Shown: positions 12,372 to 28,460, counted from the stretch's first letter. The stretch is 32,000 nt of DNA from Candidatus Brocadiaceae bacterium (GCA_039794405.1 JBDIVL010000002.1:39403-71402), one strand, 5' to 3'. Translations and numbers: made by a program. The notes: generated from the sequence alone by a model not told the origin.

Positions 12372-14309
12372 CTATTTTTTACTATTCTGCAATTGCCAGT
12401 GCGGCCTGCCTTCCCATGTAACACGGTTCTCTGCCATATTAAAATATACCTTGTCAGAGAATGTCTTTGATCCCTCTTTCCGCAATTCTGCTTTTGGATT
12501 GCCTGTCATTATGGCTATATCCTGAACCAAATCCCAAATAAGAAATGAGCCGAACCCTTCACAACCATGTAAGACCTTACTAAAAAAATAGGTATTACCA
12601 GTTGCTATGATTTTACTTATTTTTTGGCTGTCATTCAGATACGCATCTATTTGATCACCATTCAACTTCTGTCCACCTCGCGTAGCCTGAACTTCTTCAA
12701 AAAAACTTACTTTTTTCAGGTCGTCATTATAGGTCATTCTCTTAGACCAATCGACTGTCACATCCGATTCTTCAACACCCTCTTCCCCTTTTTCATACAA
12801 ATTTCCTTTGCCTTCACAGAGGACGCTATTTCTGTCTTCATAGAAAAGTACTTTCGGTGAAAAAATCTGCCTTCTATTTCCTTCCCGCAAGATTGCAAAG
12901 GGGTGACCCCTCAAGGTGGTAACTTTATTTTTTGCATTCCAGGTAACCTGGTCCCCAACAGCTTCATTGTATAAACTGCCTTTCTTATCTATAATATGAA
13001 TTTTTTCTGTTGCCTTCATATTTTGCATACTGAAATCATTTTCATTAAATACCACATACAGGTTATCACAAGAAAGGGTAGAATTTCCCCTTCTGACTTC
13101 AATATTTTTTTCGAAGCTAGCCTCCCGCGTTCCATCCAGGAAATTCATTTTCCCTTCCCATTTCACGTTAATGTTTGTATCAGGTTTATCTGTCCTGGCT
13201 GTAGTATCTTTTTCCTTTGATTTTTCTCTGATCTTTGCCTTTAAGCTGCCGGAACTCGGGACATCTATCTTACCAGTATCTCTATAAAAGATCATCTTCA
13301 GTGCATCAATACTCAGCACATCATTAACAAATTCAGCCTTTTGGGCATCCTCCAGGATTGCACTTTGGGTGTTAACATCCCATGTTAAAAAACTTCCCTT
13401 GGCAATTTTTGTCCCCTGGGAGGCGAGTACATTTCCACTTGCAATGGCCTGCTCCGTTTTTTTTGTTTTCTGGTTAAGGAAGATGACTAGTTTATCTGAA
13501 TAAACAGTCGCACTGCCTCTTTTTGTCTGTACATTATCGTTAAAGGTCATAATATTTGCATCTGCACTTCTATCAAATACCAGTTGTCCACTCGATTGGA
13601 TATAGGTTTTCTCAAGAGGCATTTCTTTCGTGTCCGTTTCCTCTAAAGAAGCTGTATCATCAACATCGTCCTTGGAAAGGAAAAAGAGGTCGTTTTTGAC
13701 ACCATCCATTTCCATTTCAGCATTTTTTTTAATCCACATCTTTTTATTAGCAAGGTCTATCTCGCACCCTTGACCGGTAATTACTATACCCTGGCCATGT
13801 ATCGTAACAAAATCATCCGTGGATACCAGTTTTTTTTCAGGCAAGTATCTCATATAGTCTGTATTGAGTTTCGTTTCGAGGTCGAAATGGATAATTACAT
13901 TCTCAGAGAGATAACCCTCGTTCGTAACCCTATTCATCTCACCATTATCAGAAGTAATGAATACGGACTGCGTACCACTTTCAGTATTTGTAGTATCACG
14001 GACCTCAATTTCCGGAGTAATAATCTTATACATATCATTATCCAGAAGAATGGTATCCTTGCCACGCATGATTAAAAATTCTTCTCCTTTTTCATCATAG
14101 TTTGGAATAGAAAGATCTTGTACTGTTTGTGTTACTGTGCCCTGATTACTTTTATTATATACCGGATCATGAATAGCGGGATTTTCCTGAGCAGGATTCT
14201 CCTTCCGGCCCTTTGTATCCTTTCCTGGTTGAGATATAACAAGAGACACAATGATGGTGAGGATACAGGCAATAGGAGTACCAATAAATATATATCTTCG
14301 TTTTGTCAT
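12372..14309 (-). CDS. Membrane-anchored protein with LptC-like and repeated LptA/OstA-like beta-jellyroll segments (putative)
   Basis: There is a single N-terminal TM segment (IFIGTPIACILTIIVSLVI). It is followed by repeated beta-rich modules resembling LptC/LptA patterns (GNV..., TW/TF ... G ... repeats, for example ASGNVLASQGTKIAKGSFLTWDVNTQSAILED). The assignment is from pattern memory only. Confidence 0.45.
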   Translation of the reverse strand: MTKRRYIFIGTPIACILTIIVSLVISQPGKDTKGRKENPAQENPAIHDPVYNKSNQGTVTQTVQDLSIPNYDEKGEEFLIMRGKDTILLDNDMYKIITPEIEVRDTTNTESGTQSVFITSDNGEMNRVTNEGYLSENVIIHFDLETKLNTDYMRYLPEKKLVSTDDFVTIHGQGIVITGQGCEIDLANKKMWIKKNAEMEMDGVKNDLFFLSKDDVDDTASLEETDTKEMPLEKTYIQSSGQLVFDRSADANIMTFNDNVQTKRGSATVYSDKLVIFLNQKTKKTEQAIASGNVLASQGTKIAKGSFLTWDVNTQSAILEDAQKAEFVNDVLSIDALKMIFYRDTGKIDVPSSGSLKAKIREKSKEKDTTARTDKPDTNINVKWEGKMNFLDGTREASFEKNIEVRRGNSTLSCDNLYVVFNENDFSMQNMKATEKIHIIDKKGSLYNEAVGDQVTWNAKNKVTTLRGHPFAILREGNRRQIFSPKVLFYEDRNSVLCEGKGNLYEKGEEGVEESDVTVDWSKRMTYNDDLKKVSFFEEVQATRGGQKLNGDQIDAYLNDSQKISKIIATGNTYFFSKVLHGCEGFGSFLIWDLVQDIAIMTGNPKAELRKEGSKTFSDKVYFNMAENRVTWEGRPHWQLQNSKK

Positions 14310-14445
14310 AAGAGTTCGAAAAAGGGTTTTTTGTTCTCAGGGATTATTATCCATATTATATAAATTTCATACAACTATTAGCACGATATTTTTCCAAAAT
14401 TTCATTAGCCTTCTATAGATAACTTAAGTAGAAATGCCCAAAGTC

Positions 14446-14620
14446 GGTACAATCTTGTGGATTAAACCAAAATTTAGAATTGATTGATAAATTTTTGGTT
14501 GGTGTCGGCTTAGGAAAACGTGCCAACCATTTCGGTTCAATCGTGGACGATTGAACCAACCCTGAGAATACTCCTGGAGCCGGAATGACAATGCCTGTTT
14601 TCGGATAGACTCTTAAACCC
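14446..14620. repeat. Mosaic intergenic repeat cluster: one degenerate and one intact GGTTCAATC hairpin plus two shared modules
   Basis: Degenerate hairpin ggtacaatc-ttgtg-gattaaacc lies at 14446-14468. Intact hairpin ggttcaatc-gtggac-gattgaacc lies at 14534-14557. ccctgagaatactcctg (14560-14576) matches 27071-27087 at 16/17. ggaatgacaatgcctgttttcggataga (14582-14609) matches the reverse complement of 29558-29585 at 26/28. Confidence 0.65.
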
Positions 14621-14626
14621 CGTTTG

Positions 14627-17197
14627 CTATAAAACAGAGGATACTTCTGAAGTTTCAGGCGACAGATTCATAGTGTGAATATCTGTACGGCTTAAAGGCA
14701 GGCCAATATAAAAATCCGTTCCAACACCTTCTTTACTCTCTACGTAGAGAATCCCTTCGTGATCCTTTATGATTCTATACACTATCGCCAGTCCAAGTCC
14801 GGTACCTTTATCCTTATTCGTAAAGAACGGCTCAAAGATATGTGAAATATTCTCGGCAGGAATGCCTGCGCCCTTATCAGAGATTTTAATAATATAGTAG
14901 TGTTTATTATTCAATACATGAAATGAAAATGGGGCAAAGGAAAAGAAAACACAACAAGCGCTTGCCTTCGCCATTTTTCTAAATCCTAAAAGGTTATCTA
15001 TCAAATCCGTATTCACTTTAATGTACCCGCCTCCTGGCGATACATCAATACTATTTTGTAGAATATTTATCAGTACCTGCTTAATCTTATCTTCATCTGC
15101 AATAAGCCGGTACCCTCTTTCTTTTACATCTGCAGTTATCTCCACACCCTTCGTTCGTGCGGTGTTTTTGAATAAATTTACTACATCCATTATTACAGAA
15201 TAAGGGTCCATGTGTTGTAAGATAGGCTGAGAGGGTTTTGCCAAATTGAGCAGATCTTCAATAATTCTGTTAATCCTTTCTATTTCCTTTACAGCAACCT
15301 GCTGGAAGCCCGTGTGAAAGTCTTTATCATCCTTTTTGTATGGAAGCAGTTGAAAATAAGTGTTGATGGCCACAAGTGGATTTTTTATCTCATGGGCAAT
15401 ATTGGCTGCAAGGGTACCAAGATGGGCCAGGCGCTCGGAGTGCTGCTTTTCTGCCTGGAGTGATTTCAATTCTGTAAGGTCTGTCAGGATTATTAAGGAG
15501 CCAAGCCTCTTCCCGTCCTCTGTCTTGAGTTTGGTTGTTGTAACATCGCACGGAATCTTTTTCTCTCCTTCCTCAATAATAGTTTCGATATTATAATATT
15601 CTGTGTCACTTGTAAGGGTGTGCTTCAATATCTGGTACGTCTCTTTACCAAGCTTTTTCAGTATTATTTCGGTGGTATTTTCACCCTTCAGCCCAAGGAT
15701 TCTTTTCGCTTCATTATTCAGAAAGGTAACTTCTCCGTTATTATCCACAACGATAACCCCATTTTTTAAGCTCTGAAGAATATTATCCCTGAAAGTTTTA
15801 GCTTCCCTCAACCCTGAATAGAGACGGGCATTGTTGGCTGCCATGGCTAACTGGCCGGAAAACGCGAGAAACATTTGAATATCTTCCTGGGTAAATATCT
15901 TTTTATTAATCTTCCTTCCCAAAAGGATTATGCCAAAGAGATCATTCTCCTGAAATACAGGGATACAACTGTCTACATCGAGAGAAGCTAATTTATCTTC
16001 TAGTAAATAATCAAATTTGCTGTGAGTAAAACGGCTCAATTGGTCACGAGAGAGAACCGTTTTATTTTGACAAAGCCATGTAACTATCGGTTCTTGTTTG
16101 GAGAAGAACAGGTTATCTCCAGGTGTAAAATTTATCGCTGCTCTCAAATTATAGTGTTGGGTAACCACATCCTTAAGAAGAATGCATATCTTCTCCATAC
16201 CTATAGATTCGTTTAGATACTGGATGGCATGATGGAGAAGCCCGTCTAAATTGTGGATAGATGAGAACATCGTTGTAGAATCACTGAGAATTTTTGGGTG
16301 ACTATATTTCGTACGAAATATAGTCTTTTCAATAATGTGTTGAATTGACTCCCGGGCAGATACAAACGTTATAGCCATTACTATGGTAGAAACAATAGTG
16401 GTAATTGTATTTTTATACTCTGATCCAGGGAGTATACTGCTTAAGAATAGTACAACAGCAAAATAGATTGCACTAAGAGCAATGGATAGAACGACATAGA
16501 CGGTACTCCGTTTAATTATCAGACTGATATCCATAAGGTGATACTTTATGATAGTGTAAGCTACAGTTGCCGGGATAGGAATGGATACCAAGGGTACAAA
16601 CCTCTCAATCTGCCATATGTCTAATATTGGCAAAAGAAAGTTTGTAATAATTGCTATAAAGAAAAACAAGAAAACTCCCAAGAACATGTATTGAATTTGC
16701 AACCTTTTGATCCCATAATAACGCAGACTTTTTTTGTAAAGACCGTATAGTGAATAAATCATGCAGGGTATAAAATAAAGCCAAAAAATATGAAATAGAG
16801 GACCGTATTTGGCACGAGGAAACTGGTTCTCAAAAGAAACCGAATCAACAATGTAGGAAGAAAGGAACGATAGAATCGTACTTACCGTGAAGAAAAAGAT
16901 ACTTAAGTGCTTGTCAACGGATCGCTCTACTTTATCCGGGAAAATAGAGGAAAAAAAGAAAAACGAAGAGGGTATAAAAAGAGCTGCACAATAGACCAGC
17001 TTCAATCTGTAGGCAGCCGATGTAGGATCTGTAGTACAAACCACAAGAAAAATAAAAAATATCCATATAGACAAAACATGTGAAAAGATACAAAATCTTT
17101 TGTTAAGAATACTTACAGGCTCTCTTAAAAACACAAAGATTCCGAGTCCGGCAATTAACAGGCATATCAGAATATATACTATTTGAGTTGCAAGCAC
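14627..17197 (-). CDS. Membrane sensor histidine kinase (multi-TM N-terminus, GAF, PAS, HisKA, HATPase_c)
   Basis: About seven hydrophobic helices span the first ~290 aa. The H-box is AHEIKNPL and the ATPase motifs are DKGAGIP...FEPFFTNKDKGTGLGLAIV. The GTG start lies 11 nt after the upstream KS stop, with GAAGG 6 nt upstream. Confidence 0.85.
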   Translation of the reverse strand: MLATQIVYILICLLIAGLGIFVFLREPVSILNKRFCIFSHVLSIWIFFIFLVVCTTDPTSAAYRLKLVYCAALFIPSSFFFFSSIFPDKVERSVDKHLSIFFFTVSTILSFLSSYIVDSVSFENQFPRAKYGPLFHIFWLYFIPCMIYSLYGLYKKSLRYYGIKRLQIQYMFLGVFLFFFIAIITNFLLPILDIWQIERFVPLVSIPIPATVAYTIIKYHLMDISLIIKRSTVYVVLSIALSAIYFAVVLFLSSILPGSEYKNTITTIVSTIVMAITFVSARESIQHIIEKTIFRTKYSHPKILSDSTTMFSSIHNLDGLLHHAIQYLNESIGMEKICILLKDVVTQHYNLRAAINFTPGDNLFFSKQEPIVTWLCQNKTVLSRDQLSRFTHSKFDYLLEDKLASLDVDSCIPVFQENDLFGIILLGRKINKKIFTQEDIQMFLAFSGQLAMAANNARLYSGLREAKTFRDNILQSLKNGVIVVDNNGEVTFLNNEAKRILGLKGENTTEIILKKLGKETYQILKHTLTSDTEYYNIETIIEEGEKKIPCDVTTTKLKTEDGKRLGSLIILTDLTELKSLQAEKQHSERLAHLGTLAANIAHEIKNPLVAINTYFQLLPYKKDDKDFHTGFQQVAVKEIERINRIIEDLLNLAKPSQPILQHMDPYSVIMDVVNLFKNTARTKGVEITADVKERGYRLIADEDKIKQVLINILQNSIDVSPGGGYIKVNTDLIDNLLGFRKMAKASACCVFFSFAPFSFHVLNNKHYYIIKISDKGAGIPAENISHIFEPFFTNKDKGTGLGLAIVYRIIKDHEGILYVESKEGVGTDFYIGLPLSRTDIHTMNLSPETSEVSSVL

Positions 17198-17208
17198 AAT
17201 TTACCTTC

Positions 17209-18453
17209 TTATGGATAATTTCTTAATATAAGAACAGCATGTGTTCCCCCTACACTATGACTATTTATAAGCGCTGTATCCATGGAAAATCGCCTTGCAT
17301 GGTTCGGAACATAGTCAAGATCACATTGAGGATCGGGTACAGCCAAATTCATCGTAGGAGGGATGATCCCATTTTTTAGACTAAGGGACGTTGCCACTAC
17401 TTGAAAACCACCTCCTGCAGCAAATGATTGGCCTGTCATAGATTTGACAGAACTTACGGGGATCTTATATGCACGGCTACCAAAGAATGTTTTAAATGCA
17501 TTCGTTTCTGCCACATCATAGCTAGGAATAGCATTTCCGTGAGCACAGATATAATCTATCTCTTCCTTTCTCATTTTGCTATTGATTAGCGCCTGTTCTA
17601 ATCCAATAACTAATCCTGTTCCACTTATATCATTTTGAAAAATATCTTGTGCATCACATGAAGTGGCATAAGATACAATTTCAGCATAAACATCTGCCCC
17701 TCTTTGTAAGGCATGATTCAATTCTTCAAGTACTATTGATGCTGCACCTTCACTCAGTACCATACCATCGCGATTTTTATCGTAAGGTCTAGATGCTTTC
17801 TCAGGTTCATCGTTTCTCTGTGAAAGAATCCCCAAGGCACATAATGCAGACATAATAAAGGGAAAAATAGGTGTGTCCGCACTCCCCACAATTGCTACAT
17901 CTACATCTCCTTGTTTTATCATCCTATAACCCCAATTTACAACTTCGAGCCCGGTTGAACATCCCGATGATAGCGTGGAATTAGGCCCGTTAATTTTTAG
18001 TTCCGAACAAATATAGCCTGTTGTTGCATGCGGTGTAAGTTCTGGAGCAGTAATACGGCTTACTGCCTGAGGTCCTGAATTGAAATATTTTCCGTACTGT
18101 ACTTCATATAAATCATTATCGGCCCCTAATGTAGTTCCAAAACACACGCCGCACCTATCTCTATTTTCCCTACTCAGATCAATATTAGAATCTGCAACCG
18201 CCATCTTTGATGCTGCAATACCAAAGGGGGTAAATCTTGCACTTCTTTTTACTATTTTCGGGTCAACATAATCACAAGGATCAAAGTCTCTTATCTCTCC
18301 CGCAATTCTTGTGCTAAGAGCAGATGGATCAAAGGATGTGATCCTCGATATGCCTGAACGTCCATTAATCAACGCATCCCAGTACGCATCTTTTCCAATA
18401 CCATTGGGTGCTAAGATTCCCAAACCAGTAATGACAACACGCCTTGTTACCAT
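17209..18453 (-). CDS. FabF-fold beta-ketoacyl-ACP synthase paralogue with Cys-His-Gln in place of Cys-His-His
   Basis: RRVVITGLGILAPNG; active-site Cys in GPNSTLSSGCSTG; first His in CAHGNAIPSYD. The KSMTGH motif reads KSMTGQSFAAGG, and NSFGFGG reads NSHSVGG. Confidence 0.85.
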   Translation of the reverse strand: MVTRRVVITGLGILAPNGIGKDAYWDALINGRSGISRITSFDPSALSTRIAGEIRDFDPCDYVDPKIVKRSARFTPFGIAASKMAVADSNIDLSRENRDRCGVCFGTTLGADNDLYEVQYGKYFNSGPQAVSRITAPELTPHATTGYICSELKINGPNSTLSSGCSTGLEVVNWGYRMIKQGDVDVAIVGSADTPIFPFIMSALCALGILSQRNDEPEKASRPYDKNRDGMVLSEGAASIVLEELNHALQRGADVYAEIVSYATSCDAQDIFQNDISGTGLVIGLEQALINSKMRKEEIDYICAHGNAIPSYDVAETNAFKTFFGSRAYKIPVSSVKSMTGQSFAAGGGFQVVATSLSLKNGIIPPTMNLAVPDPQCDLDYVPNHARRFSMDTALINSHSVGGTHAVLILRNYP

Positions 18454-18468
18454 AGGATCTTTCCTTCC

Positions 18469-20274
18469 TTAAAGAGTATCTTTATTTATTGAAGGAAAAT
18501 TTCTCTCTGCTATCCTTCTGCTATAGTCATTTATCCTTTGATAAACATCCCGAAGAAAGCTGTAGTCCGTAGTTAGTAAGGCTAAATCGCTTCTCATTTT
18601 AAACTCTTCCAATCCTTCTTGGCCTAAAAACCCGGCACTTCTTGCCGCAAGGCAGTGCTCATCTGAAACATTTACGGTATAACCCATTTCTCTAACTTTT
18701 CTCTCCATCAGACCGGCCATCTTTAACATATCCAAGTACTGCATCCCCTGTAAGGAAATATTTAGTTCAGGCCATGTACTTGGGTCCTTCGTAAGCTCAT
18801 ACTCATAGCGCAAAAATGTTTGGACATAATCACCAGGTAAGTCGAAACCATATCGATAAGGTTCTAATTGCCAGGATGTAGCAGGCAACGGTGTACCCGG
18901 AGTTATAAGAACAGAATCAGGCTTATAGTTTTCACCTTTTAGTCCCTGAAGGAAACATAAATTCTCTTCCAAGACTTGCTCATACGTTATGCCACTACCG
19001 TGAGGCAGCGGGCAAGGATAAATAAAACTTACACCCACATCAAGATGTTTCTTTTGATTGTAAGATGCCTGCTTCATGGCCTTAATCGTAAAATACATAT
19101 CCTCCATGCAATTACCTTTATGGATAACCTTTGAGAGTATCTCGTCATTAGCAACTTCAACACCCATGAAAACAGCCTTGAGTCCAGAACGTATTATTGA
19201 CTCGTAAACCTTAACCAACTCATCCATCCGCTCTTTTGCCCTGTTCTCTGCCCGGATAAACATTGAATATTCAATAATCAAACCCTCCTTTAATAATGCT
19301 TCGGCAATGCGCCTGCCCAGAGAAACAGGTGTTACGGAACCTGCAAATCTAAAGAGCCCGATACCCGTCTCATAAATTGTTTTCTTTATTTCATTGAGGG
19401 TTATATCAACATCTCGCGCTTGATATTTTCCCGTAATGTTTGGATGCGTACAAAAATTACACTTCCCGTAGTAACATCCCGAAGACTCGTTTATAACCGC
19501 TATGTTTACCTTCCCGTCATCCTTCTCATATAAGGGAAAAAGTTTTGAGTTTAACGGAACTCTTTGAATAGACGTCTCTTTCACTTTGCCACTACCATCC
19601 CTATATATCAAATTAAAGATCTCACCGGCTTCGGCAAGGGCAGTAATTCTTTTTATTACCTCAGGTTTTGCATATCCTTTAGAATACGACTCCCTTACTA
19701 TGTTCATGATCTTTGCCAAGGTTATCTCACCCTCAACATCTATACAAAAATCAAATGGGCTTTTCTCCAATGCATGTACCTTGAATTGGTTAACCTGCGG
19801 TCCACCGGCAATCACTAAAGTATTCGGGCTTGTTTTCTGAACTTTCCCGGCAAGCTTCTCTGCGTATGAAAACCTGTGGCCAAGCCATGTCTTGATTCCA
19901 AGCACTTTTACCTGATTTTCACATATTTTTTGAACCAGATCATCAATATACTTTTCCATTCTCCCTTTTAAAATCTCTGTGAGATTATCTTGAAGCGCAT
20001 CCCATTCCATCCTCAAAGAGGATGGAGCATCTCCTTTTCTTTCACGAAAAATTTGCTCAGAGAGTTCTGATAATCTTGGTGTGAGATTATTTCTTGTAAA
20101 TGATGTGTAAAATTCGATTCTTGCAGGATCTTCGATGGTAATGTTAAATCCAGCTTCTTTACATGTCCTGGCCAATGTTCCAATACCATTTTCTTTAAAA
20201 CAATCACTAACGGAATAGGCCTTTCCCATAAACGAATTCCAGAGCATAAGATCTATGCCATACAAATTATTCAT
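18469..20274 (-). CDS. B12-binding-domain (class B-like) radical SAM enzyme
   Basis: The N-terminal half is Rossmann-like (VLGIKTW...LVIAGGPQVN). The cluster motif GCYYGKCNFCTH lies at 19450-19476. The start was moved to the ATG at 20274, with GGAG 6 nt upstream. The product is 601 aa. Confidence 0.8.
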   Translation of the reverse strand: MNNLYGIDLMLWNSFMGKAYSVSDCFKENGIGTLARTCKEAGFNITIEDPARIEFYTSFTRNNLTPRLSELSEQIFRERKGDAPSSLRMEWDALQDNLTEILKGRMEKYIDDLVQKICENQVKVLGIKTWLGHRFSYAEKLAGKVQKTSPNTLVIAGGPQVNQFKVHALEKSPFDFCIDVEGEITLAKIMNIVRESYSKGYAKPEVIKRITALAEAGEIFNLIYRDGSGKVKETSIQRVPLNSKLFPLYEKDDGKVNIAVINESSGCYYGKCNFCTHPNITGKYQARDVDITLNEIKKTIYETGIGLFRFAGSVTPVSLGRRIAEALLKEGLIIEYSMFIRAENRAKERMDELVKVYESIIRSGLKAVFMGVEVANDEILSKVIHKGNCMEDMYFTIKAMKQASYNQKKHLDVGVSFIYPCPLPHGSGITYEQVLEENLCFLQGLKGENYKPDSVLITPGTPLPATSWQLEPYRYGFDLPGDYVQTFLRYEYELTKDPSTWPELNISLQGMQYLDMLKMAGLMERKVREMGYTVNVSDEHCLAARSAGFLGQEGLEEFKMRSDLALLTTDYSFLRDVYQRINDYSRRIAERNFPSINKDTL

Positions 20275-20435
20275 AGAAAACTCCGCAAAAATCAAAGTTA
20301 CACAAAAGGCATCTCCTTTTAGTTTTTTCTAACCCAAGTTCCCATCATATGTTTCCTAGCCCGGCAAAGCTGCAACTCAAATCCTTAATTCGAGTAATGG
20401 GGTATTGTTGTGAAAGAAACGCCAATATTCTGTCA

Positions 20436-20699
20436 CTAAACAGATTTCTTATCAATTTTTTGTTTTACCAGATTAGCCATCCCTTGTATGGTTAAATTCC
20501 TACTTGCTTCTTCATTAGAAATCTCTACATTAAACTCCGTTTCAATACTATATAATAAATTTATCATCTCGGCAGATTCTATACCGATATCATCAACGAT
20601 ATGTGAACTGATGGTAATATCCTCAGCATCCATCCTGAGTTCTCTTGATATGATTTTTTTAAGCCTTTCTACAATCAAATCTTCTGTAAGATTTTGCAT
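20436..20699 (-). CDS. Dedicated acyl carrier protein
   Basis: The protein is 87 aa, acidic, with a four-helix pattern. The phosphopantetheine-site region is DDIGIESAEMINLLYSIETEF, where the canonical form is D-S-L. Confidence 0.8.
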   Translation of the reverse strand: MQNLTEDLIVERLKKIISRELRMDAEDITISSHIVDDIGIESAEMINLLYSIETEFNVEISNEEASRNLTIQGMANLVKQKIDKKSV

Positions 20700-20732
20700 T
20701 ACCCGCCCTCCTAATTTACGTTATCAGATAGT

Positions 20733-21974
20733 TTAAAAAACTTTCTTAATCACGATAGTTGAATTATTGCCACCAAAACCAAAAGAGTTTGACATGGCAG
20801 CATTGATTTCCTTCTTTCTGGCTTTATTGGGTACATAGTCCAAATCGCATTCAGTATCTGCATTTTCTAAATTAATCGTAGGAGGGATTATGCTATTTTC
20901 CATAGCCAAGATACATGTTATAAGTTCTACTGCACCGGCAGCACCTATCAAATGTCCTGTCATTGACTTTGTTGAGCTTATCGGTATTTTATATGCATTG
21001 TCTCCAAAAACCGTTTTTATTGCTTTTGTCTCTCCACTATCATTTGCCAATGTTGATGTCCCATGTGCATTAATATAATCAATATCTTGAATATCCAGGT
21101 CGGCGTCTCCTATTGCCAAACGCATTGACTTGCATATCTGTATCCTGTCCTTTGAAGGCATGGTCATATGAAAGGCGTCACTGGTAGCTCCATAACCAGC
21201 TATCTCAGCATAGATATGCACACCTCTTTTTCTGGCATTTTCTTCCCTTTCTAGAATCAAAATGCCGGCACCCTCTCCCATTACAAATCCGTCCCTTTCC
21301 CTGTCAAAAGGCCTGCTCGCCTTTTCAGGCTGGTCATTTCTTTTTGACATAATTCTCAAGGAACAGAAAGCCGCAAGATTAAGCGGAAAAATGGGTGCCT
21401 CAACCCCGCCGGTTAAAACAAAATCAGCTTGGCCCGATTTGATTATATTTCTGGCAATTCCAATAGCTTGATTACCACTTGAACATGCCGTTGCACCAAC
21501 TAAACTTTGACCTGGAAGATTGAAAAAACCCGAGATTACATTTGAGGCATTTCTATTATCTTTAGGAGGCTTAGTCCGTAGGGTATAATTGTTTTTCTCT
21601 ATTGCGGTTTTTTCATCATAATATAATAAAGTTTCAATTCCTACCCCAATCAATACTCCAACCCTGTTTCTATCTATCCGAGAAAAATCCAGACCAGCAT
21701 CCTTTACTGCCATTTGAGCCGCTGCCAGGCCAAATTGTGAACACCTGCTCAAATTATTCGCCAACTCCTCGTGCATGTATTCTCCAGGGTTAAAATCCTT
21801 TACTTCTCCGGCAATTTTCGTAGGATAAGCTTCTGTATCAAACCTTGAGATACTTGATATCCCCGATTTGCCACTCATGGAAGACTTCCAGAATGAATCT
21901 ACTCCAATTCCAATTGGCGTAATAACTCCTATTCCGGTTACTACAACCCTATTCTTTTCCATTCGGTCGTTCAT
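20733..21974 (-). CDS. fabF: Canonical beta-ketoacyl-ACP synthase II (FabF type)
   Basis: All catalytic signatures are present: GATACSSGNQ, NAHGTSTLANDSGE, SSTKSMTGHLIGAAGAVE, NSFGFGGNN. The start is ambiguous (ATGs at 22016, 21992, 21974, 21962). Choosing 21974 gives 413 aa with MNDRMEKNRVVVTG. Confidence 0.85.
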   Translation of the reverse strand: MNDRMEKNRVVVTGIGVITPIGIGVDSFWKSSMSGKSGISSISRFDTEAYPTKIAGEVKDFNPGEYMHEELANNLSRCSQFGLAAAQMAVKDAGLDFSRIDRNRVGVLIGVGIETLLYYDEKTAIEKNNYTLRTKPPKDNRNASNVISGFFNLPGQSLVGATACSSGNQAIGIARNIIKSGQADFVLTGGVEAPIFPLNLAAFCSLRIMSKRNDQPEKASRPFDRERDGFVMGEGAGILILEREENARKRGVHIYAEIAGYGATSDAFHMTMPSKDRIQICKSMRLAIGDADLDIQDIDYINAHGTSTLANDSGETKAIKTVFGDNAYKIPISSTKSMTGHLIGAAGAVELITCILAMENSIIPPTINLENADTECDLDYVPNKARKKEINAAMSNSFGFGGNNSTIVIKKVF

Positions 21975-22102
21975 TTTAGATGAAACCCTCATTTGTTTAT
22001 TCGTTAATTCCACCATATCGCATACAATGAACAAAAGGAAAGTATATTTTTTAGCACCGCGTATATACTTTTTCGTGAATAGTCACTATTCCACCACTAC
22101 TG

Positions 22103-23332
22103 TCAAAAACGTTGAAAAACGAATGATACATTATTACCGGCATAATCGAAGTTATTTGAAAGCACGATATTAATGGGTCGGAAATCAGACCTTTTAAGAA
22201 TGGAAATTGATGTGCACTTTGGATCGATATTCTCAAGGTTGTTTGTTTGGGGTAAAATATGTTTTCTCAGGGATAACAATGAGAAAATTATGTTAATCGG
22301 ACCGGAAGCACCTATAGAGAATCCCAAACTACCTTTTGTTGAACTTACAGGGGTTTTCCGGTCATTATCACCTAAAATGGATTTTATTGCTTCTGCTTCC
22401 TCTACGTCTTCCCTTATCCCGGATATGCCACTCGCATGAACATAATCAACACTTACAGGATCAAGAGATGCAGAGGACAACGCCTGTTTTATACAAGAAA
22501 CCTTAGAATAGAAATTTGTATTTTTCTGGTTTTCAGAATTGTTATGACAATAAGAGGTTCCAAATCCAATGATCTCGCCATAAATACTGGCACCCCTTTT
22601 TTCTGCGCTCTGAAGTGTTTCCAGGACAACGATACCAGCCCCTTCACTCAGGATAAAGCCTTTTCTTGCAATATCAAAAGGACAGCTAGCCCGATTTGCA
22701 TCAGCACTATTTGGTTGAAATAAACCTTTAGGTCCTAATTCCTCAAAAACTCTTGGTAACAATGGTGCCTCAGTTCCACCCGCAACTATTGCATCGATAT
22801 TATGGCGTTGCAGTGTATTAAATGCCTGAATGATACTGTAATCCCCTGAACACCCACCACATGAAAATCCAACGTTAGGACCTTTAAGGTTTAATTCTAT
22901 TGCAACCTCACCTGACGGAGCATTTGCAAGATTATTTTGCATTAAGAGCGGATGAACCCTTCTCGGACCTTCAAGGTAAAGCACCTGAAGTTGTTTTTCG
23001 ATACTATAGAGTCCACTATAAGCACTGCCAATGAAAACACCAATTTTTTCCCTATCAAACTCTTCACCAATTTTTGCATCAGCTAATGCCATCTTCGCGG
23101 CAGCCAGGGCAAAACTCGCAAAACGATCGACTTTATCTTTTTTCGTTTCAGGAACGTATGTTTCGAGTTCCGGGCCGGATACTCTGCCAGCATATGTTCT
23201 TATATTAGCACCTTCTATCTCAAATTCCTTTATTCCCGATATACCAGACAGATATCTTTCCCAGTTTTCATGTATACCAACACCCAGCGGACTAACAATA
23301 CCAACGCCAGTAACTACTATTCGCTTTTTCAT
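22103..23332 (-). CDS. KS-fold protein lacking the canonical catalytic residues (chain-length-factor-like partner)
   Basis: The KS fold is clear (KKRIVVTGVGIVSPLG, SEGAGIVVLE). In an ungapped register, GPNVGFSCGGCSG places Gly at the catalytic Cys position of FabF GPSISIATACTSG. AHGTST reads HASGIS (His to Ser) and KSMTGH reads KGSLGF (His to Phe). Confidence 0.75.
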   Translation of the reverse strand: MKKRIVVTGVGIVSPLGVGIHENWERYLSGISGIKEFEIEGANIRTYAGRVSGPELETYVPETKKDKVDRFASFALAAAKMALADAKIGEEFDREKIGVFIGSAYSGLYSIEKQLQVLYLEGPRRVHPLLMQNNLANAPSGEVAIELNLKGPNVGFSCGGCSGDYSIIQAFNTLQRHNIDAIVAGGTEAPLLPRVFEELGPKGLFQPNSADANRASCPFDIARKGFILSEGAGIVVLETLQSAEKRGASIYGEIIGFGTSYCHNNSENQKNTNFYSKVSCIKQALSSASLDPVSVDYVHASGISGIREDVEEAEAIKSILGDNDRKTPVSSTKGSLGFSIGASGPINIIFSLLSLRKHILPQTNNLENIDPKCTSISILKRSDFRPINIVLSNNFDYAGNNVSFVFQRF

Positions 23333-23390
23333 GAGTCAGCCACTTTATTTCTCTTGCAAATTGTTCAAAATAAGACTTAAGAGTTTCTAT

Positions 23391-25529
23391 CTAAATGTAG
23401 TCTTTAAGAAAATCTGAAATAGGTAAAAAGACATAAACCTTACTACCTTTTCCCTCCTTAGAAGAGATATAGATAAATCCTTCATGTTCTTCAATTATTC
23501 TCTTGGATATTGAAAGTCCAAGTCCGATATTATGCGGCTTTGTTGTAAAGAAAGGAAGGAAGATGTTTTTGAGTTCATCCCGGGGAATACCGGCGCCCGT
23601 ATCCTGGATTATTACTTCAACGTACTTCAATGGTAACCCTTTCAACGCACTAGTACCATTGTATCTGCTATGAGACCCGCCATTATTGAGAAAACTATGT
23701 GATCCGGCAAGCCTCTTCTCATCCAGTAAGACATGTGAAATCTCAGCAGTCAATGTCCCGCCATCGGGCATAGCCTCTACTGCATTAAGCACCAGGTTTG
23801 CCAATACCTCTTCCAATTTTTCACAATCCCCTTGTATGGCTGCGGTTTCTTCCGCATACTTTTTCAGTAACTTGATATTGGATTCTGCCATCCTATCCCT
23901 ATAGGAGTCCAGCACCTGATCTAAGAGAAGCCTGATATCTGCTTTTCTTCTCATAAGATCTCTATTTTCTCCCAAAGTTGTCAGCTTTTTTGTCATAAGG
24001 TCGAGATTACTTACCTCTCTCCGCGCCACATGAGAAAATTGTTCCATAAACTCTTTATCTTCTATTTTTTCAGGGAACAAATCCATAAAGGTCTTAACAG
24101 CAACCAGGTGGTTTTTAACGTAATGGGCCATATTATTACTCAGCATGCTGAAGAACGCCTTTTTCTCGAGATCTTTTACCTTTAACTCCAGTTTCTTAAT
24201 CTCGTTTAAATCGGATAATACCATAATCGCGCCAAGTTCCCTGTCGGCATCTACCAGCAAGGATGTACTAACAGCATACGTAGAATGGGTTACCGGATCA
24301 CGAATCTCGCTCATCCTATAAGTTTTTTTATCTTTCAAGGTCCTCAAAATAACATCGGCAAAAACAGAACCGATATGTTTGACATCCTTCCCCAGCACTT
24401 CATGCGAGGGAATATGTAACATTTTTGAGGCGCTTTGATTAAAAGTATTAACCTTACCGTCACTATTTATAGCAATCACACCACAGGGAATATTTTCTAA
24501 GACGTTCTCATTATGAACCTTCCTGACATTTATTTCCTGGTAAAGAAATGCGTTCTCCACCGCCATACCTATATATCCTGCCAGCATAGATAACAATTCA
24601 ATATCTTCATCAAAATAGGCCTTTCCCGTAATCTTGTTTCCTAAGGCAATCACACTAATAATGTTCCCCTTAGCGAAGATCGGTATACACAGTTGTGCCT
24701 GCAAAAGGTTCATCTCTCTCTGTATCCTGATAGCCTCACGCCCGGTTAATCTTTCCGAAGCGATTTCTCTATCGATAACGTCCTTACTTAATATCTGATG
24801 GTTCCTGGTTAGCCATGACATAATACCATGCTCGTTTAAGAAGCAAATATCCCGAAATGCCCTTTCGTCTAAGCCAAGACAGCGATAAGGTCTGCTTATC
24901 CCTTCCTCCCTGTTTATCAATATGAACACTACCCTTCCAACCCTAAATATCTCAGCCAATGCCTCAACAGTAAGATCAACAAGCTTCTCAAGATTATATA
25001 CATGTGTTAACGCCTTCGAGAATTTCTGAAACACTTCCTTGTAGGTAAGGCGGATATCACCAGACCTCATTTGTTTATGAGAGGTCAATTCATCCGATAA
25101 TCCATTCTCTTTACTCATCGGCTTTAAATTTTTTACCTGCAATTGAGTAAAATTCAACACTCGTTTTAATTCCTGCCTTTCTAAAGCCCTTTCTAAAGCC
25201 TGTTGTATCATCTCCTTTTTCAGAGGTTTTTCAAGAAGTTCATAAGGTCTTACTCTTAAGGCTTCTTCAGATAATACTGGCTGGGCTGCAGGAACTATTG
25301 CAATAATCGTTGGATCAATTTCTATTTGCCGAAGATTCTCGATGAGTTTATTAGCCCCGTCGTCACGTAAAATAACATCCAGGAAAGCCACATCAATGTC
25401 TTTTCTAAGGAATATCTGTAATGCTTCTTCGGATGTTTTTGCGGTGTGAATTATACAGTCTCTGTTAAGAGACCTTTTGAGGAAGTTGTGAATGGAATTA
25501 TCATTTGAGATCACCAGAAATGAATGCAT
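23391..25529 (-). CDS. Hybrid sensor kinase: N-terminal receiver, GAF, PAS, HisKA, HATPase_c
   Basis: Receiver features are FLVISND...DVAFLDV. The H-box-like motif is MAHYVKNHL and the ATPase motifs are DTGAGIP...FLPFFTTKPHNIGLGLSISKRII. The start was moved to the ATG at 25529, preceded on the minus strand by G8 and a 7-nt spacer. Confidence 0.85.
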   Translation of the reverse strand: MHSFLVISNDNSIHNFLKRSLNRDCIIHTAKTSEEALQIFLRKDIDVAFLDVILRDDGANKLIENLRQIEIDPTIIAIVPAAQPVLSEEALRVRPYELLEKPLKKEMIQQALERALERQELKRVLNFTQLQVKNLKPMSKENGLSDELTSHKQMRSGDIRLTYKEVFQKFSKALTHVYNLEKLVDLTVEALAEIFRVGRVVFILINREEGISRPYRCLGLDERAFRDICFLNEHGIMSWLTRNHQILSKDVIDREIASERLTGREAIRIQREMNLLQAQLCIPIFAKGNIISVIALGNKITGKAYFDEDIELLSMLAGYIGMAVENAFLYQEINVRKVHNENVLENIPCGVIAINSDGKVNTFNQSASKMLHIPSHEVLGKDVKHIGSVFADVILRTLKDKKTYRMSEIRDPVTHSTYAVSTSLLVDADRELGAIMVLSDLNEIKKLELKVKDLEKKAFFSMLSNNMAHYVKNHLVAVKTFMDLFPEKIEDKEFMEQFSHVARREVSNLDLMTKKLTTLGENRDLMRRKADIRLLLDQVLDSYRDRMAESNIKLLKKYAEETAAIQGDCEKLEEVLANLVLNAVEAMPDGGTLTAEISHVLLDEKRLAGSHSFLNNGGSHSRYNGTSALKGLPLKYVEVIIQDTGAGIPRDELKNIFLPFFTTKPHNIGLGLSISKRIIEEHEGFIYISSKEGKGSKVYVFLPISDFLKDYI

Positions 25530-25952
25530 TGGCAGACCCCCCCCTCTTCCCAATTACCTGTAAAAGTATTTGTACTTATTACAATAGGCAGATGAAATGA
25601 ATGATGTCTGAGTAAAAAATGGTATAGATTTATAGAGTATGATACCCAGAATGTCCACCATTGTCAATAACGAGTGTTTTATATAAGTTAAATAACCTCA
25701 AAATAAAATATCATAGAGCATTGCAAAACTTCCCGAAAAACAGAGAGCTTCTAAAGCCTACAACAGTGACATTCTGTTTTTATAAGACTATAGTTTACTG
25801 AAAAATTAAATTTTTATTGTTTTTATCGTCAAAATATATTACTTTTTTAGGGCTTTTCCAAATAATTTTTTCACCTTTTATCAGGTAGAATAAAATCATT
25901 GTATGAGATTGGCATTAAAAATCTGAATTCATAATTGGAGGAACTACTATAT
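25530..25952. promoter_or_regulatory. AT-rich divergent control region between the kinase/KS operon and the HD-GYP/FadL operon
   Basis: This 423-bp spacer separates divergently oriented genes and has no credible ORF. Individual promoter hexamers could not be assigned with confidence. Confidence 0.4.
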
Positions 25953-26984
25953 ATGGAACAAAAAATTACATCATCAAACATATTAGTAGTGGATGATGAT
26001 CTCGGCGTAAGAGAATCATTAAAAATGATCCTAAAAGACAGGTATTTTATTTCTACTGCATCAAATGTTGATGAAGCCGCCAATGCCTTGAAAGAAATTA
26101 GCCCATTAACAATCTTCCTGGATATAAGAATGCCCAAATCGAATGGGCTTGATTTTCTTAAAAGGATGCAATCTACTAACCCTTCGATTCCAATAATTAT
26201 CATTACGGCATTTCCTTCTTCACAAACTGCAATAACGGCATTGAGAAATGGTGCCTTTGATTATATCGTGAAACCCTTTGAGCCATCAGAAATACTTGAA
26301 ACAGTAGAAAGGGCTTCGCAGCATTATGCTGAATTATCGGAAAAAGACCGGCTTATCTATAACCTGAGAAAGGCCGTTCACAAAAATTTCTTTTCAACGA
26401 CAGAAGCACTCTTGCTCGCAATAGATGCAAAAGACTCATACACTGCAGGTCATTCGAAAAGGGTATCTCAACTGTTTTCCTTTGTTGCAAAAGACCTCGG
26501 CATGAGCCAATCGAAAATTGAAGTCTTTCAATATGGAGCATTTCTCCATGATATCGGGAAAATAGGTATCAGCGATAATGTACTAACAAAGCCAGGTATC
26601 CTTACCGACGAAGAATTCCTTTTTATAAAGCGCCATCCTGAAATTGGCTATAAAATTCTTGAACCTATCAATTTTTTAAAAGAATGTTTATTAATCGTTC
26701 GTCATCACCATGAATGGTATAACGGTACTGGTTATCCAGATGGACTCAAAGGAACAGAAATTCCTCACGAGGCTACTATCCTTTCTATCGTAGACGCCTA
26801 CGATGCGTTAACCACTGATAGGCATTATCGCAAAAAATATACCCACCCAAATGCACTTGCGATTATTACAGAAAGAATACATACTCAATTTACACCAACC
26901 TTGACGGAGAAGGTTCTTACTTCCATTAACACATATCATAGAATTAATACGAGTGATGAACCATTTGAAGAGTTTTCAAAATGA
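25953..26984 (+). CDS. Response regulator with HD-GYP output domain (RpfG-like c-di-GMP phosphodiesterase)
   Basis: Receiver features are ILVVDDD...FLDIRMP...K. HD is LHDIGKIG and the HD-GYP signature is HHHEWYNGTGYPDGL. The start was moved to the ATG at 25953, with GGAGG at 25937-25941. Confidence 0.85.
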   Translation: MEQKITSSNILVVDDDLGVRESLKMILKDRYFISTASNVDEAANALKEISPLTIFLDIRMPKSNGLDFLKRMQSTNPSIPIIIITAFPSSQTAITALRNGAFDYIVKPFEPSEILETVERASQHYAELSEKDRLIYNLRKAVHKNFFSTTEALLLAIDAKDSYTAGHSKRVSQLFSFVAKDLGMSQSKIEVFQYGAFLHDIGKIGISDNVLTKPGILTDEEFLFIKRHPEIGYKILEPINFLKECLLIVRHHHEWYNGTGYPDGLKGTEIPHEATILSIVDAYDALTTDRHYRKKYTHPNALAIITERIHTQFTPTLTEKVLTSINTYHRINTSDEPFEEFSK

Positions 26985-27087: not shown

Positions 27088-27104
27088 ATAAGGGTACAAA
27101 AATT

Positions 27105-28460
27105 ATGTTCAGGTACTTAAATAATATTTGTATACAGGTGCTTACGATAAAACGACCGCTCGTATTTTGTATTTTTACTCTTACTCTCCTTTCATCCTTT
27201 TTTGAAAGAGCAAATGTATTTGCACAAATAGCATCAGGATTGCATAACCCCGCCCTGGGGGCTTCAGCGCTCGCTCAAGGAAACGCCTTTGCAGCCCGTG
27301 CGAATGATACATCTGCCATAGCATTTAACCCGGCCGGACTTATGCAACTTGAGAGACCGGAGATCTCCTCAGGTGCCAGCGTCCTCTTCTCATCAGTAGA
27401 ATATCACAATACCAATATTGATGAAGAAATGGAGGCAATAAATGTTGTTCCGAATATGTATTTTGCAAGTCCAATTATTGAAAACAAACTATCTGCAGGT
27501 ATCGGAATAATCGCCCCTTATGGCCTCGATGGTGAATGGGATGATGACGGATTCTCCAGATTTGTAGTTACAGATTTTAGTTTAAGAATTATTAATATAA
27601 ATCCAACTCTAGCCTTCAAACCATTTTCTTTCCTCTCTTTCGGTGCAGGGTTTAACTATTATTATGCAGATGTTGAACTAGGAAAACATATGAATACAGG
27701 TTTAGTTAATTCAGTCTTAACCGGTTCCATCCTGGATAATAGCACTCCTGAGGGAATCCAGGACCTTGATATGCATGGAGATGCTTTTGGATATAATGCT
27801 GGTATGCTCTGTAATATTACTCCACGTCATAGTATTGGGGTTTCATTTCGAAGCAAGGCAGATATAGATTTTGAAGGTAAGTTGAGACTCTCCAACCTGA
27901 GCGGCGCAGCCGCATCGTTATTTGGTTCCCATACCTTTGTTTCAAAAACTTCCACAACTGTTACAATACCGGAAATGCTCTCATTTGGTTATGCATATAA
28001 ACACGGAAGTCTCTGGAGTATAGAAGCAGATGTTCAGTGGACAAACTGGTCCCGGTTCGATATCCTCAAATCCCATTTCAGACCAACAAATCCCTTGTTA
28101 GAGGCAAATAAGGAGGATATTCGAAAATGGCATAACACCCTGGGGTTTGCTCTTGGTGGTGAATATAAGTTCAATGAAGCTATAAAAATACGAGGTGGCT
28201 ATGCCTTTCATGAGTCTCCGGTTCCAGGCGAAACCTTTGAACCCTCGGTCCCTCAAAGTAGCAGGCATGCGTTATTTACAGGATTCGGATATAGTTGGGG
28301 AAAAAATTTAAACAAATGGATAGATTTTGCTTATGGAATTGTATTCTACGAAAACAGAAAAATAGATAATTCTGTAGGGGATTCCGTACAAGGTCCTATT
28401 GATGGACATTACGACCTTATTACACATATCGCAGCTATAAATTTTAATTACAGGTTTTAA
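27105..28460 (+). CDS. Outer-membrane hydrophobic-compound/long-chain fatty acid channel (FadL/OMPP1/TodX family)
   Basis: A signal peptide is present. The family motif is AIAFNPAGLMQL, the sequence has alternating beta-strand character, and the C-terminus is INFNYRF with a terminal Phe. Confidence 0.75.
   Translation: MFRYLNNICIQVLTIKRPLVFCIFTLTLLSSFFERANVFAQIASGLHNPALGASALAQGNAFAARANDTSAIAFNPAGLMQLERPEISSGASVLFSSVEYHNTNIDEEMEAINVVPNMYFASPIIENKLSAGIGIIAPYGLDGEWDDDGFSRFVVTDFSLRIININPTLAFKPFSFLSFGAGFNYYYADVELGKHMNTGLVNSVLTGSILDNSTPEGIQDLDMHGDAFGYNAGMLCNITPRHSIGVSFRSKADIDFEGKLRLSNLSGAAASLFGSHTFVSKTSTTVTIPEMLSFGYAYKHGSLWSIEADVQWTNWSRFDILKSHFRPTNPLLEANKEDIRKWHNTLGFALGGEYKFNEAIKIRGGYAFHESPVPGETFEPSVPQSSRHALFTGFGYSWGKNLNKWIDFAYGIVFYENRKIDNSVGDSVQGPIDGHYDLITHIAAINFNYRF

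Follow-up and report, generated by a model that had tools for sequence, protein, structure and literature searches.

Within a 32,000-nt stretch of DNA (the window, here and below) we studied a block of seven consecutive genes at positions 14627-25529, all on the minus strand, encoding a hybrid sensor histidine kinase (HK1), three proteins of the ketosynthase (KS) fold, an acyl carrier protein (ACP), a B12-binding-domain radical S-adenosylmethionine enzyme (rSAM) and a second, membrane-bound sensor kinase (HK2). A first-pass annotation of the sequence had described seven such genes in an anammox host; all seven open reading frames (ORFs) were recovered (Table 1; the mechanically called rSAM ORF spans 18469-20295), and the host is indeed an anammox bacterium, of the Brocadiaceae. 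Pfam returned the domain content already proposed, and alignment to solved FabF gave the same triads for the three KS proteins: Cys-His-His, Cys-His-Gln and one non-canonical set, Gly-Ser-Phe. Intergenic gaps of 58, 128, 33, 161, 15 and 11 nt were obtained again with the start codons behind the earlier figures, namely ATG 21974 for the FabF gene, ATG 20274 for the rSAM gene and ATG 25529 for HK1. The mechanical start for the FabF gene, a TTG at 22034, gives a 68-nt gap instead, and the rSAM start is backed by a 601-aa orthologue (P0001).

By Pfam, ketoreductase, dehydratase, enoyl reductase and acyltransferase domains are missing from the block, as annotated before, and from the rest of the window, which also holds no fabH, fabD or fabG. 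No terminator-like site was found on the minus strand in the intergenic gaps of the block, and an Rfam scan of 14000-29500 returned no riboswitch, neither cobalamin nor cyclic di-GMP (c-di-GMP). The regional best sigma-70-like site, upstream of HK1, is the probable start of the operon; shuffled sequence contains at least as many promoter-like sites, and the site is listed as a candidate only. Tight gaps, the lack of an intergenic terminator-like site and a promoter candidate found only upstream of HK1 are consistent with a single transcript. Base composition of the block is uniform with that of its flanks. The arrangement itself is not a product of chance, because the same order recurs elsewhere: the full set in eight other genomes and its core in about 28 loci.

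Table 1. Genes of the block, its promoter candidate and the two divergent genes that accompany it (window coordinates).
Feature	Position	Strand	Basis and remarks
HK2, membrane sensor kinase with seven transmembrane segments (7TM), 7TM-GAF-PAS-HisKA-HATPase	14627..17197	-	Pfam
FabF-like KS, Cys-His-Gln (core KS)	17209..18453	-	Pfam KS N+C; aligned to solved FabF
B12-binding-domain rSAM, 601 aa, Cx4Cx2C (GCYYGKCNFCTH)	18469..20274	-	Pfam, motif, AF2 model
Dedicated ACP, 87 aa	20436..20699	-	PF00550, 37.2 bits; attachment Ser in DIGIESAEMI
FabF-type KS, canonical Cys-His-His	20733..22034	-	Aligned to B. subtilis FabF; likely start 21974 or 21962
Catalytically dead FabF-fold protein, like a chain-length factor (CLF)	22103..23332	-	Pfam KS N+C; Gly/Ser/Phe at Cys/His/His positions
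HK1, cytoplasmic hybrid sensor kinase, receiver (REC)-GAF-PAS-(H-box)-HATPase	23391..25553	-	Pfam; likely start ATG 25529
Sigma-70-like promoter candidate, TTGACA-17-TATCAT	25639..25667	-	11/12 matches, regional best; ~86 nt upstream of HK1
Response regulator with HD-GYP domain (HHEWYNGTGYP), predicted c-di-GMP phosphodiesterase output	25935..26984	+	Pfam Response_reg + HD_5
FadL/TodX-type outer-membrane channel for hydrophobic molecules	27105..28460	+	PF03349, 242 bits; adjoins HD-GYP regulator

The block is a composite of a conserved core and an optional cassette. In the core layout, shared by about 28 loci of Brocadiaceae and Candidatus Anammoxibacter, the FadL and HD-GYP regulator genes stand on one strand and HK1, rSAM, KS and HK2 on the other. 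Insertions between HK1 and rSAM are optional and consist of a sigma-54 activator, then a cassette of dead KS, FabF and ACP. Eight Brocadia loci, including that of B. carolinensis, have both insertions, and Kuenenia, B. sapporoensis, B. pituitae and others have the activator only. Jettenia, Loosdrechtia and Wunengus-like metagenome-assembled genomes (MAGs) have neither, and the HK1 match is short in this group. The cassette without the activator is found in the window and in the closest species representative, a Brocadiaceae MAG (L005, 89% identity). Full modules are also present on two unclassified contigs whose proteins share only 23-45% identity with those of the window, in the orders rSAM-KS-HK2-HK1-NtrC-RR_HD (L079; RR, response regulator) and rpoN, kinase, FadL, B12 rSAM, KS, HK2, HK1, NtrC, RR-HD (L099). 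We found no description of the block in the literature, in agreement with its earlier labelling as an uncharacterised system, and none of an rSAM-KS-kinase module.

Coupling of a synthase-type gene to a membrane kinase recurs across lineages, as a KS-HK2 pair in the Brocadiaceae, in L079 and L099 and in seven metagenomic loci. The HK2 start of the window lies 11 nt past the KS stop codon and is preceded by a GAAGG ribosome-binding-like sequence. In Brocadiaceae loci that extend far enough HK2 follows KS, at gaps of mostly ~5-20 nt (larger in L019, L023 and L026), and KS in turn comes after rSAM wherever a locus is sufficiently complete to reveal the order. The metagenome scan gave at least 80 loci. 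Among the matches listed, about 70 are ordinary acpP-fabF pairs with no kinase beside the KS gene, which provided a negative control, and in nine the KS is closer to the core KS than to FabF. Seven of these nine have a homologous kinase immediately downstream of KS, at -4 to +12 nt, and the seven are all such loci with a confidently called downstream ORF; of the other two, one gave a weak kinase match at best and one gave none. The full 7TM-GAF-PAS-HisKA-HATPase architecture was checked in one of the seven kinases (L089). A 598-aa ORF upstream of KS in L100, considered as a hidden rSAM, has no Pfam match and an hhalign probability of 0.04, and is probably spurious. The presence of kinases at both ends, described by the first-pass annotation as unusual for a lipid operon, is borne out; "merely unusual" says too little, as the kinases are the most conserved partners of KS and rSAM and are therefore integral parts of the unit.

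The third triad residue of the core KS varies. It is Gln in most Brocadiaceae and in Anammoxibacter, Asn in L079 and L099, and His in six Brocadia loci (L009, L013, L014, L015, L024 and L032), all of which carry both the cassette and the sigma-54 activator. Many of the nearest relatives (42-50% identity), collected by a search exhaustive over 1.84 billion representatives, also have Gln or Asn there. This switching suggests repeated interconversion at a tolerated position, and a position always occupied by a hydrogen-bond donor argues for a predicted working active site in the Cys-His-Gln enzyme, as in Cys-His-Asn enzymes. Many of the closest relatives (P0349, P0350, P0353, P0355 and others) are proteins of ~800-870 aa with two KS-fold halves, that is, natural KS-KS (KS/CLF-like) fusions.

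HK1 matches Response_reg, GAF, PAS and HATPase_c; Pfam finds no HisKA in it, but an H-box-like MAHYVKNHL is present, and the protein scores 222 bits against the NCBIfam AtoS-like model. Its position is kept in the Brocadiaceae at 54-67% identity. The gene is shortened to REC-PAS in Jettenia and B188, and its tblastn match covers only ~450-500 codons in many other loci. HK2 matches HisKA_7TM, GAF, PAS, HisKA and HATPase_c. The HD-GYP regulator, transcribed divergently from the block, scores 200 bits against the NCBIfam c-di-GMP phosphodiesterase response regulator model, below its cutoff of 400; it is syntenic in most Brocadiaceae loci, and a homologue lies directly upstream of rSAM in nine non-anammox loci. 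FadL is likewise syntenic in most Brocadiaceae loci, with a homologue in L099, and reaches 139 bits against NCBIfam FadL, below the cutoff. Where the sigma-54 activator is present, it stands 9-30 nt from the next gene in several related loci, and regulators and enzymes are therefore probably co-transcribed.

The rSAM matches the B12-binding domain PF02310 at 33.4 bits (cutoff 32.1) and Radical_SAM at 27.4 bits, just under the cutoff of 29.5. Its assignment is further backed by an invariant Cys motif, by Pfam matches on its orthologues and by an AF2 model (pLDDT 92.8), whose nearest solved folds are OxsB, TsrM and AprD4. In all of them, as in the block enzyme, a Rossmann domain of B12 type at the N terminus precedes a radical SAM barrel (Foldseek E 1e-16 to 1e-11, TM-score 0.5-0.65), the layout of cobalamin-dependent (class B) radical SAM enzymes. 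They differ from the block enzyme in sequence (only 12-16% identity), in lacking its distinct helical C-terminal domain of ~130 aa and in their CxxxCxxC motif, in place of which the block enzyme has Cx4Cx2C at C267, C272 and C275. Three Cys are thus still available for a 4Fe-4S cluster. Family members as far apart as anammox bacteria and DPANN archaea all keep the Cx4Cx2C spacing, which is also found in a 27%-identical paralogue (12398-13987 of L087). Orthologues with 65-94% identity occur in Brocadia, Jettenia, Kuenenia hertensis, Loosdrechtia and Wunengus; identity is 52-53% in Ca. Anammoxibacter and falls to 30-37% in many other phyla and DPANN archaea.

Neighbours of these distant relatives were counted two ORFs to each side in about 44 non-anammox loci. 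AMP-binding ligases account for 17 ORFs, FeeM/LuxI-like N-acyl amino acid synthases for 12 and UbiE-type methyltransferases for six; HD-GYP regulators lie directly upstream in eight to nine loci, and MacB/ABC and MMPL exporters are found as well. A Latescibacterota operon combines histidine kinase, response regulator, HD-GYP response regulator, rSAM and FeeM almost without gaps. From these counts we conclude that the rSAM family probably works on acyl chains in small regulator-linked pathways, and the substrate of the block enzyme is presumably an acyl chain. In the Anammoxibacter locus L037 a second B12 rSAM (457 aa, 92 bits to TIGR04072) comes after KS, replacing HK2; the 570-nt intergenic region between sigma-54 activator and rSAM of that locus (~9800-9990) holds runs of an ACAAATT heptamer (~10 copies) and, just upstream of the rSAM start, TTGGTTA runs.

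Such a set of genes could also serve the membrane itself. A kinase-regulated remodelling operon would have the rSAM modify an acyl-ACP, for example by mid-chain methylation, and the KS elongate the product back into the type II pathway that makes fatty acids (FAS II), following FabA/FabB logic, while the 7TM kinase senses the membrane as DesK does and tunes the operon. The ACP-dependent parts, the constant pairing of KS with rSAM and the coupling of a membrane-embedded kinase to KS all fit this explanation, as do FadL and the lipid-transport genes nearby (LptC/A in the window, Mla genes in L001) and the OlsB/FeeM-type aminolipid acyltransferases and MMPL exporters that adjoin rSAM relatives. 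It accounts poorly for the main output protein, which is an HD-GYP c-di-GMP phosphodiesterase and not a transcription factor, in a lineage that lacks the sigma-54 activator. Enzyme genes placed between kinases in one operon are, in general, atypical of lipid homeostasis regulons. The module was, moreover, not found in K. stuttgartiensis and Scalindua, whose non-ladderane fatty acids are similar. We regard remodelling as the leading alternative to the signalling reading given below, possible though on the unlikely side.

The inserted cassette has a history of its own. Orthologues of its dead KS (59-100% identity) come, wherever the source carries an organism label, from Brocadia, Brocadiaceae, Planctomycetota or Scalindua records; the next best matches are ordinary FabF at 39%. 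The dead-KS gene always adjoins a FabF gene. Triad positions in the orthologues hold Ala/Gly/Thr, Ser and Phe/Leu/Tyr (Ala/Ser/Phe in Brocadia). In the motif SCGGCSG of the block protein a Cys lies one residue past the lost catalytic position, and every anammox orthologue keeps this +1 Cys (G[AG]CSG; GTCSS in S. japonica), with a more distant protein in L088 lacking it (GYASG). The +1 Cys might have a structural role or act as a displaced nucleophile. Orthologues of the cassette FabF (69-98% identity) have labelled sources in Brocadia, Brocadiaceae and Planctomycetes, plus one Bacteroidota-labelled MAG; beyond these Brocadiales-type orthologues come a few matches at 56-59%, and the nearest labelled relatives are then FabF proteins of Firmicutes at 53-56%. 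The attachment Ser of the ACP is kept in all cassette orthologues, in DIG(I/V/A)ESA(E/D)MI.

The trio stays together in four genomic contexts: window-type, Brocadia-type, L086/L087 and L088. Its order is ACP-dead KS-FabF in L086, a Planctomycetes MAG. In L087 it is dead KS-FabF-ACP, followed by a FeeM/autoinducer-synthase homologue, the 27%-identical Cx4Cx2C rSAM and an MMPL exporter. The S. japonica dead KS (Thr/Ser/Leu) shares 62-67% identity with its L086 and L087 counterparts, and Scalindua-type genomes carry the cassette at other loci. Transposase genes (DDE_3, DDE_Tnp_1) lie at the edges of the cassette in L087 (7172-7576) and of the module in the Jettenia locus L002 (18449-19453), which fits units moving within anammox genomes. 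The cassette is therefore best seen as an old, movable anammox unit that has been fused with the kinase operon in the window lineage and in some Brocadia.

These data leave a nearly negligible chance to housekeeping FAS II fabF and acpP genes that happen to lie between regulators. The FabF does exceed the fabF equivalog cutoff (522.6 bits against 493.75 for TIGR03150; the other two KS of the block, at 417.6 and 335.1 bits, are below it). The ACP, on the other hand, falls below every AcpP equivalog cutoff (52.6 vs 106, 50.8 vs 70.45 and 52.1 vs 71), FabF precedes ACP and fabH, fabD and fabG are missing, the cassette is not at the locus in complete anammox genomes such as those of B. pituitae and Jettenia, and the nearest labelled relatives of its FabF outside the Brocadiales-type group are, as said, those of Firmicutes. 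B. fulgida has a separate canonical pair in the order acpP-fabF (BROFUL01968/01969; PMC9821293). The block is thus probably what the first-pass annotation took it for, a specialised ACP-dependent add-on.

FabF and dead KS probably form a KS/CLF-like heterodimer with its own ACP, by analogy with amxFabF2/amxFabFmut of the anammox Cluster I (10.64898/2026.05.19.726425). They also resemble the minimal systems of type II polyketide synthases (PKS) such as actinorhodin ActI and ishigamide Iga11/Iga12, where an active KS and its inactive paralogue are likewise neighbours, the ACP is a dedicated one and the cluster lacks an acyltransferase. The likeness to type II PKS has limits: the CLF of type II PKS has a decarboxylating Gln where the dead-KS family of the block has Gly, Ala or Thr; cyclases, aromatases and ketoreductases are missing from the block; and its active KS still scores above the fabF equivalog threshold. 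A conventional secondary-metabolite cluster of type II PKS/FAS-like or N-acyl amino acid-related kind, making an antibiotic, pigment or surface lipid under kinases that are pathway regulators only, would explain this pair, the joining of cassette relatives to FeeM, rSAM and MMPL genes in L087, and the AMP ligases, methyltransferases and MacB exporters beside rSAM relatives. We consider it quite unlikely, as Pfam finds no tailoring, release or export gene in the block and as the KS-kinase pair persists in metagenomic loci with no other biosynthetic gene, which is hard to fit with mere regulators of a large pathway.

A link to ladderane synthesis had been proposed for the block, through a parts list said to be that of published candidate clusters. 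FabF paralogues, dead KS, ACP and B12 rSAM do agree with those candidates (PMC2649909; 10.64898/2026.05.19.726425); FabZ and a desaturase do not. The consensus candidate, Cluster I (KustE3603-3608), comprises amxACP, FabZ, FabF2, FabFmut, a phytoene-desaturase homologue and a B12 rSAM, is described as highly conserved across anammox bacteria, and its amxFabF2 and amxFabFmut form a KS/CLF-like heterodimer (10.64898/2026.05.19.726425); kuste3603-08 is now held to be central to ladderane synthesis (10.64898/2026.05.19.726425; PMC13459092). Like it, the block has an active FabF paralogue beside a dead one that is plausibly a chain-length factor, a dedicated ACP, a B12-domain rSAM and an anammox host. 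It is not Cluster I, as Pfam finds no FabZ/FabA or amine-oxidase/desaturase domain in the seven proteins or the rest of the window. The dead KS has Gly/Ser/Phe where amxFabFmut has Val/Thr (Cys position) and Asn/Glu/Cys (His position). Chains B and C of 9s5h, probably the amxFabF heterodimer, give lower scores with all three KS of the block than ordinary FabF does: the dead KS reaches 182 and 188 bits against 9s5h_C and 9s5h_B and 262 against P. aeruginosa FabF, and the active FabF 330 bits against 9s5h_B and 404 against B. subtilis FabF. With these scores and the differing dead residues, the cassette pair is, at the sequence level, distinct from amxFabF2/amxFabFmut. The rSAM also belongs to another family than that of Cluster I; it scores 55.2 bits where TIGR04072 (rSAM_ladder_B12, lipid biosynthesis B12-binding/radical SAM protein) has a far higher cutoff, 360. 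Finally, the block has a third KS (Cys-His-Gln) and two kinases that Cluster I lacks, and is patchy over anammox genera where Cluster I is highly conserved.

Other candidate clusters have been listed before (kustd1386-91, kuste2802-05, kuste3335-52 and kuste3603-08; Rattray 2009/Javidpour 2016: PMC2649909, PMC4790861). Compared by description only, kuste2802-2805 (AcpS, B12 rSAM, FabF, non-canonical FabB; PMC4790861) resembles the block in placing a B12 rSAM beside a FabF and a non-canonical KS; it is excluded on composition and reported residues, with an ACP synthase, no ACP, no kinases and a non-canonical KS reported as Phe/Asn/Glu. Again by description only, kuste3348-3350 has the gene order of the cassette (non-canonical FabF, FabF, ACP), and its reported residues, Ser/Ser/Asn, differ. 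In composition, then, the block matches none of these candidate clusters.

Distribution points the same way. Kuenenia, Jettenia, Loosdrechtia, B. sapporoensis and B. pituitae are all ladderane producers, and the cassette was not found at this locus in any of these five lineages. Synteny across the Brocadiales does not bear out the proposed link, with the core also undetected in Scalindua and K. stuttgartiensis by prefiltered searches, and homologous modules and rSAM relatives occur in many phyla beyond anammox-type records. A ladderane pathway, in which the KS paralogues would build an ACP-bound chain and the B12 rSAM would make, or help to make, the cyclobutane rings on it, would find some support in the shared parts, in the confinement of the dead KS and of close rSAM orthologues to Brocadiales-type records, in the ring chemistry of OxsB, the nearest solved relative, and in a field where no ring-forming ladderane enzyme is known yet (PMC13459092). 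Against the differences in parts, residues, family scores and distribution given above, we consider it very improbable.

Our best reading of the block is one operon with two layers, the conserved core (rSAM, Cys-His-Gln KS and HK2, with HK1 upstream and the divergent HD-GYP regulator and FadL) and the inserted cassette. We propose, with a probability of roughly 0.4, that it is a sensor-coupled pathway yielding a specialised acyl compound, with a lipid-like signal as the likeliest kind. That it forms an autoinducer-like synthase-sensor circuit and not the ladderane core pathway is given somewhat less than even odds. Operons of a synthase, a multi-transmembrane kinase and a regulator are typical of agr, comQXPA, cqsA/cqsS and rpfF/C/G. 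Among these types of system, the diffusible signal factor (DSF) system RpfF/RpfC/RpfG and the alpha-hydroxyketone systems CqsA/CqsS and LqsA/LqsS likewise place a lipid-metabolism-type synthase gene beside a multi-pass membrane kinase. DSF signalling has an HD-GYP response regulator as output (RpfG), a role to which the REC + HD_5 protein with HHEWYNGTGYP corresponds, and genes for fatty-acid uptake or activation lie near DSF and alpha-hydroxyketone systems as FadL does here. The block differs from them in its synthase, a FabF-like KS with an rSAM where the others have a crotonase or PLP enzyme, and in the HisKA_7TM-GAF-PAS input of its kinase.

A second comparison is offered by clusters for FeeM-type long-chain N-acyl amino acid synthases, for which a link to the PrsK/PrsR pair of PEP-CTERM/exosortase systems is reported (Craig, Cherry and Brady 2011). 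FeeM/LuxI-like acyltransferases are neighbours of distant rSAM relatives and of the L087 cassette, and HK2 and the sigma-54 activator of L001 resemble PrsK (TIGR02916, 109.1 bits) and PrsR (TIGR02915, 385.3 bits), both below the respective cutoffs of 300 and 502.6. The window itself contains no FeeM gene and no PEP-CTERM or exosortase genes.

In the proposed signalling pathway, FabF and dead KS would act as a KS/CLF-like heterodimer responsible for priming a short acyl chain and extending it on the dedicated ACP, with malonyl transfer and reduction borrowed from housekeeping FAS II. The rSAM would then act on the acyl chain at an unactivated carbon, methylating it or forming a C-C bond there, and the Cys-His-Gln KS would carry out the committed condensation on the modified group. 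The product would be a low-abundance lipid-like molecule, sensed in the membrane by the co-translated HK2 and, in neighbouring cells, after entry across the outer membrane through FadL. Signal flow would run from the kinase to the HD-GYP regulator, leading to c-di-GMP hydrolysis, and to the sigma-54 activator where there is one.

Several points weigh against this proposal. Its basis is gene context, and in several respects that context is equally well compatible with the remodelling operon discussed above. The block has no thioesterase, acyltransferase or other release enzyme, which leaves the exit of the product from the ACP unexplained. Activity of the core KS with its His-to-Gln change is only predicted, and AprD4 carries a B12-type domain without cobalamin, so that cobalamin binding by the rSAM is likewise only predicted. 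On the regulatory side, the locus of the window lineage has no DNA-binding regulator, and no sigma-54 promoter (GG-N10-GC) with at least 8 of 11 consensus matches was found in the intergenic regions of the block, nor upstream of rSAM or dead KS in 24 related loci. Lastly, neither a protein search nor a scan of species representatives, both of which use word or pattern prefilters, returned a core (rSAM) orthologue in K. stuttgartiensis or in Scalindua (best match 26% in the latter), and the core is likely absent from both.

More broadly, a Cys-His-Gln/Asn KS and its co-translated 7TM-GAF-PAS kinase could define a new, multi-phylum family of lipid-derived signalling systems in which the KS, with or without an rSAM, makes the ligand that its own kinase senses, with c-di-GMP turnover as the output; we speculate on this very tentatively, and doubt is in order. 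The Cx4Cx2C B12 rSAM, the HD-GYP regulator, the sigma-54 activator and FadL may be the partners that often join such a pair.

The surroundings of the block contain further genes of envelope or lipid character and some unrelated ones. Directly downstream of HK2 are genes for a fused LptC/LptA-like protein of 645 aa (12372-14309, minus strand) and for a glycerophosphodiester phosphodiesterase fused to HEAT repeats (603 aa; 10303-12114, minus strand), both envelope- or lipid-related; K. hertensis has MlaD/E/F genes at the corresponding position. On the other side, FadL is followed by a gene for a 266-aa protein (28518-29318, plus strand) with no Pfam or NCBIfam match, found among related loci only in Jettenia (L002, 70% identity). 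Haem-pathway genes unrelated to the block flank the region (29785-31008 and 8706-10229, both minus strand): one encodes an AhbC equivalog (12,18-didecarboxysiroheme deacetylase; 739.9 bits, cutoff 650), which is syntenic with FadL in several relatives, and the other a fused tetrapyrrole methylase and HemD protein. Further away, a multihaem ORF resembling hydroxylamine oxidoreductase (1318-3162, plus strand; Multi-haem_cyto, 279 bits) overlaps, as called mechanically, an NAD-epimerase ORF (717-1604, plus strand) by ~290 nt, so its true start is probably later. Its orthologues stand directly beside HK2 in Wunengus-like MAGs, with 11 kb of other genes between the two in the window. A urea-transporter gene adjoins an IS200-like Y1 transposase fragment (5746-6639 and 6669-7211, both minus strand), followed by a low-GC (35%) stretch at 7000-8700 with only short unannotated ORFs, and the whole may be a scar of insertion or rearrangement.

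For anammox biology, these results take a tempting but weak candidate out of the ladderane problem, with a distribution that separates the block from Cluster I and from ladderane production, and they reveal, in anammox bacteria, a KS/CLF-like pair that is additional to the structurally characterised one and has an ACP to itself. The novel finding is a FabF-like KS coupled to a 7TM sensor kinase, with partners that include rSAM, HD-GYP, sigma-54 and FadL; this coupling is conserved well beyond anammox bacteria. Almost all known lipid-modifying radical SAM enzymes act on isoprenoids (PMC13459092); acyl chains would join their substrates through the Cx4Cx2C family of B12-domain enzymes, which in many phyla is associated with acyl ligases and N-acyl amino acid synthases. 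If KS and kinase are indeed a signal synthase-receptor pair, they would represent a new chemical class of bacterial signalling and a handle on aggregation in organisms that remove nitrogen from wastewater. Such a system, if real, could control anammox aggregation and granule formation, and the cassette would supply it with a lineage-specific acyl precursor.

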